From assembly GCA_951406725.2 (NCBI GenBank), contig OX597830.1, forward strand, positions 2,108,001 through 2,172,000: 64,000 nucleotides of DNA. Reading direction: 5' to 3'. This DNA comes from Octopus vulgaris (lineage: Eukaryota). A program made the translations under genes and the position numbers. Below are positions 9,511 to 64,000 of the stretch, in pieces (within the stretch, counting starts at the first letter, position 1; every line of letters begins with the position of its first letter). The notes below the pieces were generated by a model. It worked only from the letters and a program-made list of their open reading frames with translations. It made no database searches and was not told the DNA's origin.

Positions 9511-9547
9511 CTCTATTGAGGGCTTAACAAGTAAGACATATATTTTT

Positions 9548-9758
9548 CAGTTCTATATTTAAGAGATGAGGAATTATTTACATTTGACGGATATTTATCA
9601 TCTTGTTTGTTGTTAACACGTTTTGGCTGATATACCCTCCAGCCTTCATCAGGGGTCTTGGCAAAATTTCGAACCTAGGATCTCATTATTATTATTCACG
9701 TCACTGCTTGGAATCGAACTCGGAATCTTGGGGTTAGTAGCCACTACACCATATGCCC
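9548..9758 (-). mobile_element. tRNA-head/(AAT)n/hammerhead element, copy 1 (decayed)
   Basis: Aligns to 29646-29926. The minus strand has a tRNA-like head and CTGATGA-A-GGCTG..CAGCC, but GAAA is mutated to AAAA. Confidence 0.8.
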
Positions 9759-14627: not shown

Positions 14628-15896
14628 GTAGGATAGTGAGAAATACACCCACCCACACATACACATACACACCGGTACATGCTCACACACAGATACGTGT
14701 ATATATATATACCAATTAAGGACTGAACACGAAAAGTGGACAGTCAACATGCTAGATATAGACGTCAAATCGCCACAGAAGAGAAATCGCCATTCTCCAC
14801 AAAAGTACATGGGTAATTATTTTATTTCGTATATTTTCACTTGTTTATTGCTATGGTTTTGTGCTGAGTTTGATCTGAGAACATAATCTTTTGTGGAGAA
14901 TGGCGATTTGACGTCTATATCTAGCATGTTGACTGCCCACTTTTCGTGTTCAGTCCTTAATTGGTATATATAAATATTTTAATCTTCGGATTCTTTTTTA
15001 ATATGCTAGACCACTGGTCTTAATTGATAAACATCAATTTCTACCCTTAATTATATATATATATATATATATAATTATGATATAGGGTTAATTGCAACAA
15101 GTTGCTCAAAACAACGCACCAAAAATATTAGAAATAGCAGCTAAATAGGTCACCATCACTACTACTAGAAAAATAATTCTCCACAAACAAACAGAATTTG
15201 TAACCCGTATGTGGTAAAGAGAAAGAAGATAACGAAATCCCAGCCTATTTGGATTAATTATGAACGAATCCGTTTCTGGATTAGAATCGAAAGTTCATTT
15301 CCTTATCAACATAATATTTCCTATAAATCTAGAAATGCTAGGAAAAAACTCGACCAGGCGACATCGAACGATATAACAGTCTGCCAGCATCTCCACATTT
15401 ATATAGACAGGCGAATTCGTATCTCCCTCCAAAATTTCACCACGTGAGTTACAAAAACAGTACCACCGAAAAGAAGTTTCGCAGATTCATTGTATGGGAG
15501 TAATAGTATTCGATACACATAAAGGGTGAAATATAATTAATTTAATAAAATTAATATAATTGTGGAGATGCTGGCAGACCGTTAGATCGTTCGATGTCGC
15601 CTGGTCGAGTTGATGTAATGGGTGAGTTTTTTCCTAGCATTTCTAGATTTATAGGAAATATTATATTGACAAGGAAATGAACTTTCGGTTCTAATCCAGA
15701 AACGATTTCGTCTATAATTAATCCAATAGGCTGGGATTTCGTTGTCTTCTTTCTCTTTACCACATACGGGTTACAAATTCTGTTTGTTTGTGGAGACTTA
15801 TTTTTCTAGTAGTAGCAATAGTGACCTATTTGGCTGCTATTTCTAATATTTTCGGTATGTTGTTTTGAGCAACTTGTTGCAATTAACCCTATATCA

Positions 15897-15955
<59 letters not shown>

Positions 15956-16024
15956 GTATCTGTGTGTGAGCATGTACCGGTGTGTATGTGTATGTGTGGG
16001 TGGGTGTATTTCTCACTATCCTAC
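14628..16024. repeat. Nested inverted-repeat complex
   Basis: Outer arms 14628-14700 and 15952-16024 are exact reverse complements (73 bp). Inner pair A is 14704-14805 / 14888-14972. Inner pair B is about 15070-15400 / 15557-15902, diverged and with one indel. The blocks are separated by (TA)n. Confidence 0.92.
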
Positions 16025-16064
16025 AACTTGTTACAATTAACACTTTATTATAACTATATATAAT

Positions 16065-16474
<410 letters not shown>

Positions 16475-20224: not shown

Positions 20225-21400
20225 AGTAGATTTGCATGTTTGCTTTAAGTTGTATTCTCATGCATATAGTTGCATATCTAAACATGCTCATGTATATTTA
20301 AATAATAAACTTTTAGAAATTTTTACAGATTTTTACAGTTCCAGCAATAGAATAAGCTTTCTCATGTGTGGTTTTGAGAAGCCTAATTACACAAGACTGG
20401 TATTTAGGCAGTGTTTTACAGATCCCAGGGCCCCAATAATTACAGGTATAAACCTGAACTTGTAATCTCGACAGAGTAACTGCAGATTTCTCAATAGTTC
20501 TGCATAGGTGTTCTCTTTTTCACATATGAGTAAATAATATCGTGATGAGATCGTCGGACAACTGCTTACGATATGGGCGATATCGTCAGTGTTAACTCCA
20601 CAAAGTCTGCATCGGTTGTCACATTTTACAGCTTTTCCCGCATCTCTATCGCTTTTGTGCATCAGGTATTTGACTGATATTTCCTGTTCCTGGATTGCAA
20701 GCACACATCCTTCAAACTGGGAGGTAGTAATCCGGCTAGTGGTCCTTGATAAACTGCTCTGATGATCAATGTTACTATCATCTCGGAGCTTTTTGCGAAC
20801 TTAGTCTTCTGCTCATATATGCTCATCCTTTCTTCTGATATGTTTCGGTAGAGTCGTGCTTTCCAAGTCTTATGATGTTATCAGCCTCATGTATTCAAAA
20901 TTGGTCCGGGGGTGCACTTTGACACTTGGTGGTTAAAAGGTGATGCAGAAGGAGTATGATATAACATTCAAAGGTATTTTGGATCGATGTTAAGCCTCTG
21001 CCGCCTTGTTTTCGTTTTAGGTAGAGGCGGTTTACGTCACTGTTTATGTGGAAATTATGAGTGCTTCTTAGTAGTTTCCAGGTTTACACATCAATGGCTC
21101 GGATCTCATCAAGCGTCCAATTAATTGTTGATATGAGTACTGGCACTGCAAGCACATTTTGGGCCACTGCTTTATTGAACGCAGTCAGTTCTGAAGTCAG
21201 AATTTTCTTTATTCTGCTGGAATATTCTTTAGTGACACGTATTTTGTTACATGTGCAACCTCTAGGTACCGGTAACACTTCTCGTCAGATACAGGGGAGT
21301 AAGTCAAATCATTGATGGAGATGTTGCTTGTCTGGTTTATAGTTTTCTCCCTTTTCACAACCATATAACAACATGTGTGTATGTAATTGAATCGTTCAGA
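20225..21400 (-). mobile_element. Decayed RLE-type non-LTR retrotransposon (thumb, CCHC knuckle, endonuclease end)
   Basis: TKEYSSRIKKILTSELTAFNK; HINSDVNRLYLKRKQGGRGL; AIQEQEI..CRLC...DIAHIVSSCP (CCHC); YAELLRNLQLL..YKFRFIPVIIGALG. The 3' side abuts (CATA)n at about 20137-20225. Confidence 0.88.
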
Positions 21401-29638: not shown

Positions 29639-29645
29639 CATCATT

Positions 29646-29926
29646 CAGTTCTATATTTGAGAGATGGGGAATTATGTACATTATTTACATTTGACGGATA
29701 ATTGTCTTCATCTTATTTGTTGTTAACACAACGTTTCGGCTGATATACCCTCCAGCTTTCATCAGGTGTCTTGGGGAAATTTCGAACTTGGGTTCTCATT
29801 CCTAAGGCATTTTTTCTATGTTATTATTATTACTATTATTATGAGTAGTAGTAAGGTCACTGCCTGGAATTGAACTCGGAATCTTTGGGTTAGTAGCCCG
29901 CGCTCTTAACCACTACGCCATATGCC
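29646..29926 (-). mobile_element. tRNA-head/(AAT)n/hammerhead element, best copy
   Basis: Minus strand: ggcataTGGCGTAGTGGttaagagcgcGGG-CTACTAA-CCCaaagattccGAGTTCAATTCCaggcagtgacct (A box, anticodon-like loop, B box; 29854-29926), then a short trinucleotide tract and a hammerhead at 29725-29770. Confidence 0.85.
29725..29770 (-). ncRNA. Minimal type I hammerhead ribozyme motif (Penelope/retrozyme type)
   Basis: GACAC-CUGAUGA-A-AGCUG-gaggguauau-CAGCC-GAA-AC/GU-U-GUGUU. Stem I is GACAC/GUGUU, stem II has 4 bp plus a basal A-C mismatch (G-C in the 9.6-kb copy), and stem III is the palindrome ACGU with a GUU site. Confidence 0.75.
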
Positions 29927-32720: not shown

Positions 32721-33441
32721 CTATGTTAGACTTTTGCTTTATATTTGTACAAGTTGGCTCTAAGTCTCACCCAGAGACCTCAAGAGACAATATGTTGGAA
32801 GTTCACGTTGTTGTTATGCCTAGTGTGCCATATATTTGAGTTTTTTTTTGGTGTTGTACTAGTGAATGTCTAAAAAAAATCATACGAAAATTATGTTTGT
32901 TTTAAAACTTGAGATTACATAGAAAGTATTTTGCGTTGGATATGAGCAGTTCCCATGAGCAATTTCTTTTGAATTTCTGCCATTTTGGGGTTTCCTGGTA
33001 TCTGAGTTAGATAGCAATCAGCCCCTTTTGCTATGCTATCATTCCCAGGTCACCTATGACAACAGGTATTGTTTTAGTCTTCAGGTTCCACATTTTGCTG
33101 ATTCCTATTTCAAGATCTTTATATTTGCTCAGTTTTTCGTAGGTCTTGACAGATACGTTTATATCGATTGGGACAGTCATATCAATGAGGAGGCATGTTC
33201 TTTGTCTGAAGTCTTTCAATATGATGTCTGGCCTATTTGCATCTATCTTTCTGTCAGTTTGAATGGTGAAGTTCCAGAGGAGTGAGATGTGGTCATTCTT
33301 AAGCACTGGAGGTGGTTTGTGTTCCCACGAGTTTTTTTATGGGGCAAATCCAGGTTTTTGCAAATTACCCAGTGAATATATTGTGCAGCTCTATCATACC
33401 TGTTGAGATACCCTGTAGGCGCTAGAAGACTGCACTTGGAG
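32721..33441 (-). mobile_element. R4/Dong-type retrotransposon 3' fragment
   Basis: ORF 33031-33306 LLWNFTIQTDRKIDANRPDIILKD..CLLIDMTVPIDINVSVKTYEKLSKYKDLEI..MWNLKTKTIPVVIG.LG is a classic PD-(D/E)xK RLE. (TTA)n lies on both sides. Confidence 0.95.
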
Positions 33442-37511: not shown

Positions 37512-38068
37512 GAGAGAGAAAGATATAGATGTATGTAGATGCCCTGCATAACGATGAAATTGGGGTTTGAGCTTCACACGCACACATTACTATGTTTTGA
37601 GTATATTTTTTCCTGATATCTATTCTATGCTCAACGTGGAATAAATCAGAAATAACATGAAACGTCCATATTACAAAGCCTCGCATGAATAAAAACGCAA
37701 ACTGTTTCTTTCTATACTCTCCCTATGTAGAGAGAAAGGAGAGTGTACCTTCTGATGAACCGAGACTCTCCACCTCATTTCGCATCAACTGCATAGAAAC
37801 GACCCGATTATATTCTTATTATAGCCACAACGAGATTTTCCAATATTTAAATTTCACTTTGATTTTCATGTTTTAAAATCAAATTACAATAGTAAATTTC
37901 ATGATTTTCAGAAAGTTTGCTTACTACACGAAGAAAAATGTTGCTGATGCTTCGAGAGTTGTCCTTCCTTTGTTACACAAGGAAGATTTTCGTGATTGTA
38001 TATTTAAATATTCAAACACATACAGAAACACACACACACACACACACACAGGTGTATATGTATACATA

Positions 38069-38694
38069 TGATGAATACAGAGGTATGAAATCACAGGTGA
38101 TACAAGTCCATATTTTTAAATGTCTTACTTTGAAAAATTGCATTCGGTGGGATTAGTAAAGTTTTGGTAGAAATGACTAATTTTGTCCCTCTTAGCGTGT
38201 GGCATGTATGTATAATAATGCCCTCTATATATAAATTTAATATGTCCAATAAGAGAGAATTATTTTCGAAATTTTTTCTCTTATGAGGTTTTTCACGCTA
38301 TCTACCCGATAATTTCTTGTTAAGTTTTCCTTATTAAGAAGTCCTTAATTGCTAAATTTTTATTCCGAAAAAACTTTTCCTTTCCCGAAATGCAATTCGT
38401 AAAAGTCTGCCATTTACCGGATGTAATATATGTAAACTAACCCATGTGCGTCGTTGATGTTGATCAGTTGGCTGCCCGGCTTTGACGATGTAGGGTCGTT
38501 TATTTATAATACGTCCAGACTTGCTGATGAATACAGAGGTATGAAATCACAGGTGATACAAGTCCATATTTTTAAATGTCTTACTTTGAAAAATTGCATT
38601 CGGTGGGATTAGTAAAATTTTTGGTAGAAATGACTAATTTTGTCCCTCTTAGCGTGTGGCATGTATGTATAATAATGCCCTCTATATATAAATT
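38069..38694 (+). mobile_element. Hammerhead-bearing partial tandem repeat (retrozyme or Penelope pLTR-like), ~456-bp unit
   Basis: 38069-38237 is repeated almost exactly at 38525-38694 (difference only at agtaaag/agtaaaat). The repeat starts inside the hammerhead core and is flanked by CA/TA microsatellite. Confidence 0.85.
38518..38564 (+). ncRNA. Type I hammerhead ribozyme
   Basis: GACUUG-CUGAUGA-AUAC-agag-GUAU-GAA-AUCA-cagg-UGAU-A-CAAGUC. Stem I (6 bp), stem II (4 bp) and stem III (4 bp) are fully Watson-Crick, the core is intact, and the predicted AUA cleavage is after 38558. Confidence 0.9.
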
Positions 38695-38779
38695 ATATAT
38701 ATATATATATATATATAATAAGGGTTTTTTGCAACAAGTTTTGCAACAAAATCCCTTATTATTATATATATATAAATTT

Positions 38780-38865
38780 TTACCGAATATGGTCCTTTTC
38801 CATACCGAAATACTACTAGGTGAAATTTATTGATTTTATTAAATTAATTATATTTCACCCTATAT
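38780..38865 (+). repeat. Second copy of the small TA-associated element seen at 16065
   Basis: High similarity to 16065-16160. It is preceded by the fold-back taataaggg..ttgcaacaagttttgcaacaa..cccttatta (38716-38761), which resembles the terminus of inverted arm B at about 15080. Confidence 0.8.
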
Positions 38866-38872
38866 CTGTAAT

Positions 38873-39027
<155 letters not shown>

Positions 39028-63572: not shown

Positions 63573-64000
63573 TTTCTTCAACAACCCACAGATTGACTTA
63601 TTCTAATCCCTTTTCTTCAACAACCCACAGCTTGACTTTATTCTAATCTCTTTTCTTCAACAACCCACAGCTTGACTTATTCTAATCCCTTTTCTTCAAC
63701 AACCCACAGCTTGACTTATTCTAATCCCTTTTCTTCAACAACCCACAGCTTGACTTATTCTAATCCCTTTTCTTCAACAACCCACAGCTTGACTTTATTC
63801 TAATCCCTTTTCTTCAACAACCCACAGCTTGACTTTATTCTAATCCCTTTTCTTCAACAACCCACAGCTTGACTTTATTCTAATCCCTTTTCTTCAACAA
63901 CCCACAGCTTGACTTATTCTAATCCCTTTTCTTCAACAACCCACAGCTTGACTTTATTCTAATCCCTTTTCTTCAACAACCCATAGCTTGACTTTATTCT
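63573..64000. repeat. Minisatellite, 39/40-bp unit, about 11 copies, running off the window end
   Basis: Unit tttcttcaacaacccacagcttgactt(t)attctaatccct in near-identical head-to-tail copies with no spacers. Confidence 0.97.

Follow-up and report, generated by a model that had tools for sequence, protein, structure and literature searches.

Retrozyme papers propose rolling reverse transcription of RNA circles by Penelope-like proteins (PMC7229834), and animal retrozymes have been linked to pLTRs (Li, Clavereau & Pollet 2026, bioRxiv 10.64898/2026.07.22.740005). The nearest metazoan non-LTR example to the unit described here is the mussel retrozyme, of 350-390 bp (Cervera & de la Pena 2020, PMC7229834); in non-LTR retrozymes the target-site duplication, when present, is given as longer than 4 bp. 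Penelope-like elements themselves often lie in microsatellites without clear target duplications (PMC8557442), and the anole element shows AT-rich nicking, internal initiation and use of uncut RNA in vitro (PMC11167929). For Octopus vulgaris, 190 Penelope-like families have been reported, which account for 6.83% of the genome, 31 of them recently active (PMC13282606). Cephalopod Naiads are reported to be dead; hence, a Neptune- or Penelope-type partner would be the likelier mobiliser of the octopus unit.

In the window (the whole stretch of Octopus vulgaris DNA analysed, 64 kb), positions 38069-38694 hold an element with several features of metazoan non-LTR retrozymes: a small non-coding unit with GC below 50%, a canonical type I hammerhead motif, head-to-tail arrangement, a multi-copy family with high copy number, and a monomer RNA that is predicted to be strongly self-paired; some mussel circles also have a ribozyme predicted to be blocked (PMC7229834). 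The mussel family and the octopus unit are likened by description, circles and cleavage of the latter being predicted only. The unit differs from the known metazoan non-LTR retrozymes in its cephalopod host and in the single complete ribozyme at the locus, and in size it lies at the upper end of the 150-450 bp given in one paper (PMC7229834) and inside the 51-972 given in another (bioRxiv 10.64898/2026.07.22.740005). With Penelope-like elements (PMC4209133; PMC8557442; PMC11167929) it shares the partial tandem, the 5'-truncated first copy, the palindromic helix III, a 3' end well downstream of the ribozyme and an AT-rich microsatellite as target. Unlike them, it has no ORF, a period of 456 nt and canonical helices of 6 and 4 bp in place of the minimal motif, and an inverted 5' copy of the unit and a tail are both absent among the features identified. 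A compact branched circle whose ribozyme is in an inactive pairing, both predicted for the octopus unit, recalls hammerhead viroids and the LTR retrozymes of plants (summarised in PMC7229834); however, the octopus motif is of type I and not type III, neither an LTR pair nor a 4-bp target duplication is seen, and the unit resides in an animal genome and shows no indication of infectivity, nor of a ribozyme on the minus strand.

We consider it probable that 38069-38694 is a copy from a circle-forming retrozyme family of the non-LTR, non-autonomous Penelope-like kind; the copy itself is probably a young, truncated insertion into a TA-rich microsatellite, and a dead end. If this is true, retrozymes would extend to cephalopods and a high-copy octopus repeat would be given a function. 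The surprise is modest, since the class of element is already known (PMC7229834; bioRxiv 10.64898/2026.07.22.740005), and the octopus unit is most likely a new member of it. Our literature search, outside which most subscription papers fell, found no cephalopod retrozyme in print; supplements might contain one, and the repeat family may already be named in Repbase or Dfam.

The tandem unit and its hammerhead motif

The element is 626 nt long, which corresponds to 1.37 units of 456-457 nt. An earlier note on this DNA had described a 169-bp block repeated at a 456/457-bp offset, and global alignment bears this out: the blocks at 38069-38237 (169 nt) and 38525-38694 (170 nt), both on the plus strand, differ by one substitution and one 1-nt indel, and the two offsets arise because both differences fall in a single A/T run. 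The 287 bases between the blocks are non-coding. The same note had seen no long ORF in the unit, and rightly so, the longest stop-to-stop frame overlapping 38051-38700 being of 85 codons and extending into the flank, with no Pfam match in the four unit frames, all of which were scanned. No tRNA module was found in the unit and no second copy of it elsewhere in the 64-kb window, and a 24-base unit probe had no matches in metagenome, viral and prokaryote collections. Matches to bacterial promoters and terminators in the stretch were set aside as irrelevant to animal DNA. On the left, the element is flanked by a (CA)n tract and a TA-rich palindromic stretch (38029-38068); on the right, the second block ends in a TATA-like run at the border of a (TA)n tract (38695-38717), the likely insertion target, so placed that the 3' boundary is uncertain by a few bases. 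No target-site duplication can be discerned at the element, both flanks being TA-rich.

The complete canonical type I hammerhead motif is found at 38518-38564 on the plus strand, with the architecture described in PMC4209133. Helix I is formed by GACUUG/CAAGUC (38518-23/38559-64, 6 bp) and helix II by AUAC/GUAU (4 bp, loop AGAG), the core elements CUGAUGA (38524-30) and GAAA (38543-46) are intact at all core positions, and pair 10.1-11.1 is A-U instead of the usual G-C. Helix III (38546-57) is palindromic and the triplet is AUA, with a predicted cut after 38558. Our hammerhead descriptor matched nowhere else on either strand of the window. Over 300 dinucleotide shuffles it gave 0.01 matches per window in its loose form and 0 in the as-observed form. 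The descriptor found no hammerhead on the minus strand of the unit. Rfam returned no match in the whole window at the gathering score, and at E<=10 over 37600-39000 it gave 19 weak matches, mostly microRNA models on low-complexity tracts, with no hammerheads among them; the ribozyme call is thus based on the descriptor and the published architecture. A minimal-hammerhead scan returned nothing, but its length limits also made it miss the 38518-38564 motif, so this negative carries no weight. A hammerhead-like core with a later GAAA at 37752-37810, 320 nt upstream, failed the helix tests of the descriptor and is probably a chance occurrence.

Because the first block opens only at U4 of the hammerhead core, its ribozyme (38069-38108) is missing C3 together with the 5' strand of helix I, which the earlier note had also observed, and it cannot form the motif in cis. 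With a single complete ribozyme in the copy, release of a monomer by the copy itself is improbable, and 38069-38694 can probably not produce one on its own. An active locus has been defined as one with two consecutive complete ribozymes (Li et al. 2026); the upstream motif being defective, we do not count this one as an active retrozyme locus.

From cut site to cut site, the predicted monomer (38103-38558, plus strand) is of 456 nt and 34% GC. Its predicted folding energy is -115.9 kcal/mol (z -4.9) as a circle, with 65% of the bases paired, and -122.1 kcal/mol (z -5.8) as a linear RNA; the minus strand does equally well, with a z of -5.0. Of 25 background windows, five came to a z of -4.5 or lower, and four of these five contain dinucleotide repeats. 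The modelled compact fold is thus unusual, though not unique. Octopuses are known for heavy A-to-I editing, and a very abundant, highly paired RNA would be of interest in such an animal.

The octopus ribozyme is predicted to be mostly misfolded. An alternative hairpin pairs 38519-38528 with 38546-38554, the active fold being 3.5-4.5 kcal/mol less stable, and free folding of the ribozyme region did not yield the hammerhead fold; the pairing probability predicted for helix I in the whole 1.37-mer is about 0.08. The palindrome of helix III is predicted to form a homodimer at -11.2 kcal/mol. Canonical metazoan type I motifs with a palindromic helix III are described as cleaving as dimers in tandem transcripts and as quiet in the monomer (PMC4209133), a behaviour that, by analogy, the predicted misfolding and the predicted helix III dimer would fit. 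Among predicted Xenopus retrozyme dimers, one of nine cleaved in vitro and the other eight did not (bioRxiv 10.64898/2026.07.22.740005).

Copies, joints and variants of the family

Parts of the stretch occur in 20 of the 24 sequencing runs listed, over 12 studies and six organism labels, and half or more of its words in only two; no listed run is on record as RNA. We aligned contigs from four runs to one monomer (38238-38694) at 80% likeness; X1 and X3 are DNA runs, and X11 and X13 are RNA by guess. Across all identity bands, 3205 contigs aligned in X1, 1320 in X3, 113 in X11 and 10 in X13, with a summed depth of 10^5-10^6 in X1 and X3, which is not equal to copy number. Distinct contigs in the thousands could not all derive from one locus, and from these counts we infer at least hundreds of copies and probably thousands.

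At least seven contig joints in X1 and X3 connect 38686-38694 to 38240-38274 of a following unit, with various AT-rich linkers in between; in the element itself this linker is at 38238-38272, and it differs strongly among family variants. The periods implied by the joints listed are 427-454 nt, assuming that the rest of the unit is equal in length. As these joints recur, the head-to-tail unit of about 450 nt belongs to the family and not to this locus alone, although, the contigs being short, long arrays and other partial tandems would look alike. Neither circles nor cleavage products nor two complete ribozymes in a row were seen, forms that contigs of this kind could not reveal. At least six other joints reflect a short tandem duplication of a small hairpin near 38653-38673, present in some family members, with a summed depth of up to 4204 (X3).

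A single-copy local duplication, which the earlier note had named as the finding that would speak against it, is therefore excluded by a large heterogeneous family with the head-to-tail junction in other variants. We give very little credence to the related possibility that 170 bp of a monomeric SINE-like repeat were duplicated in tandem, locally and as DNA, with the ribozyme as a relic. A recent duplication in unstable, microsatellite-rich surroundings would equally explain the near-identical blocks, and the low cover over the ribozyme described below would suit it; however, the junction recurs in other variants with different linkers, a pattern that a single event would not produce and that calls for a family unit which is repeated or circular.

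In both DNA runs, median cover drops directly 5' of the predicted cut: over 38478-38557 it is lower than elsewhere in the unit by factors of 18 and 20, and it recovers directly after 38558. Contigs listed as spanning this segment have 12-21 mismatches over some 80-140 nt, and different versions of the ribozyme are visible in loose ends. In those of X11 and X13, helix III is one base shorter, still palindromic, and the 3' strand of helix I differs by one base; one X3 loose end, with only one half visible, is compatible with a longer helix III. The plain reading of the drop is divergence past the 80% cut-off, and, given the low cover, many relatives may be without a ribozyme or carry an altered one. 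Another reading, which we find rather improbable, is that the cleaved linear monomer gave rise to the majority of genomic copies, which would start exactly at the cut and end at the tip of the long hairpin, the place of an internal start by the Penelope enzyme; rarer more-than-unit copies, such as 38069-38694, would come from the circle. Copies of the former kind would make cover collapse over the 80 nt 5' of the cut, and the contigs fit this and divergence alike. If it were true, octopuses would harbour a viroid-like RNA parasite with a ribozyme, in thousands of copies, and the DNA of the family would record ribozyme cutting in the germ line and the RNA form used by the reverse transcriptase.

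Of 46 family variants 40 are listed, and three of these 40 fall inside the ribozyme, where cover is low. One is at 38528, the free position N7; the other two, 38531 A>G at position 10.1 and 38519 A>G in helix I, each leave a G-U pair. All three are at tolerated places, and none of those listed hits the invariant core. The long rod-like hairpin directly 5' of the ribozyme (38419-38516, plus strand) has 25 listed variants; scored singly, 8 are unpaired, 13 keep pairs and 4 break them, two of the latter being a single double change from G-U to U-G. The expected number of breaks is 9.7 (P 0.002; P 0.02 when only paired sites are counted). Over the whole stretch, 10 of 40 listed variants break pairs against 14.9 expected (P 0.036), and in the region 38238-38418 all three paired variants do so. 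Since the variants are unphased, their relatedness is uncontrolled and the structure comes from one copy, this is at most suggestive of a structural constraint on the modelled long hairpin.

One X13 contig (depth 8.4) has extra letters 5' of 38270 on the plus strand, which we take to be a template-switching cDNA adapter. If so, X13 would be a cDNA library holding RNA of ribozyme polarity with a 5' end at about 38267-38270, away from the cut, a weak hint at plus-strand transcription of the unit. One X11 contig reads through the cut site, as would be expected of a precursor, a circle or DNA alike. X13 has no cover over 38558-38694 and one of its contigs ends four letters past the cut, although holes in contigs prove nothing. 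Differences in the runs guessed to be RNA, such as 38506 A>G in one X13 contig, were rejected as evidence of editing, which needs DNA of the same animal.

Template and insertion

The insertion extends from 34 nt 5' of the first predicted cut site to about 135 nt 3' of the second. Because it reaches beyond the cut, a cleaved linear monomer alone is excluded as its template in a single pass; the template would rather be a circular or uncut tandem RNA, most likely copied by a Penelope-like reverse transcriptase. The earlier note had proposed this kind of origin for the 1.4-mer. The 34 nt across the cut and the canonical retrozyme architecture are in its favour; however, no Penelope ORF was found in the window. 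None of 116 frames (112 non-repetitive window frames of at least 70 codons plus the four unit frames) matched any Pfam family, RT and GIY-YIG included, so that neither a Penelope ORF nor a host exon is recognised nearby. The data agree with the suggestion of a recent insertion: a single substitution over 169 nt corresponds to about 0.8 My (range 0.02-4.6) with a borrowed rate implied in PMC13282606, and assuming that the blocks were identical at insertion and that their difference is not an assembly error.

In the mechanism that we propose, master copies with two or more units would be transcribed from the plus strand, and successive hammerheads would cut the transcript, probably as dimers through the palindromic helix III, to yield an RNA of about 450 nt. 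A host ligase would circularise this RNA, in which the predicted alternative hairpin would keep the single ribozyme off. The protein of an autonomous Penelope-like element would then nick (TA)n DNA, reverse transcription would begin within the unit at a point about 135 nt 3' of the cut, and the enzyme would pass the cut-site junction and continue for more than one unit, having halted here within the ribozyme core.

An identical 1.37-mer would result if linear tandem transcripts of a non-autonomous Penelope derivative were copied uncut, with no circle involved and the hammerhead as a rarely cutting feature inherited from a pLTR. The anole element uses unprocessed RNA in vitro, where ribozyme mutants insert normally (PMC11167929), the octopus ribozyme is predicted to be mostly misfolded, and the sole adapter-marked 5' end, at about 38267-38270, is not at the cut. 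However, the canonical rather than minimal motif, the variants at tolerated positions and the compact cut-to-cut fold suit a processed RNA, and units of a similar kind in mussel, coral and axolotl are described as circular in vivo (PMC7229834), so we hold this origin to be unlikely. The RNA form that serves as template for Penelope proteins (circles, uncut multimers or cut monomers) is of wider interest: papers propose circles, while uncut RNA serves in the one system studied in vitro. In a family as numerous as this, with a cut site that can be recognised, the choice is testable from the ends of the copies.

It is highly improbable, in our view, that an autonomous Penelope-like element instead left 38069-38694 as a truncated, rearranged copy of its 3' end, the pLTR region. 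Penelope elements do show partial tandems, hammerheads and insertion into microsatellites (PMC8557442), and a relationship between retrozymes and pLTRs is described (bioRxiv 10.64898/2026.07.22.740005). The 456-nt period is, however, without an ORF and recurs at similar lengths in the other joints, of which there are at least seven, the window frames gave no RT or GIY-YIG match, and autonomous metazoan elements are described as having mostly the minimal motif, with a long helix II (PMC4209133).

Other repeats in the window

A second non-coding, (TA)n-flanked repeat family adjoins the 3' end of the element at 38700-38870, in the form of a short hairpin and an end fragment. With the unit it has only short AT-rich matches (best 20/24), and we regard it as an element of its own. 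A larger, nested copy of this second family is found at 14628-16187, with inverted arms at 15052-15404 against 15922-15554 (90%) and at 14628-14711 against 16024-15941 (100%), a Penelope-like inversion pattern without a standard hammerhead core. An exact match of 13 bases between the unit (38340-38352) and the ends of the 14628-16187 element (14712-14724 and 14952-14964) may be due to chance or to a shared recognition motif.

Two repeat copies on the minus strand, at 9546-9700 and 29644-29810, have 89% column identity and by eye resemble a minimal Penelope-type hammerhead, with a different defect in each; they are probably decayed pLTR ends of another family. Also on the minus strand, 33034-33336 is a decayed non-LTR retroelement fragment with 94 protein matches, the named ones mostly from Octopus bimaculoides, which also provides the best (81% identity, E 5e-39), and 20390-20800 was judged by eye to be a decayed non-LTR retroelement fragment. 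At the end of the window, 63573-64000 is made up of units of about 79 nt in tandem, 96-98% identical, and the array continues past the window end.
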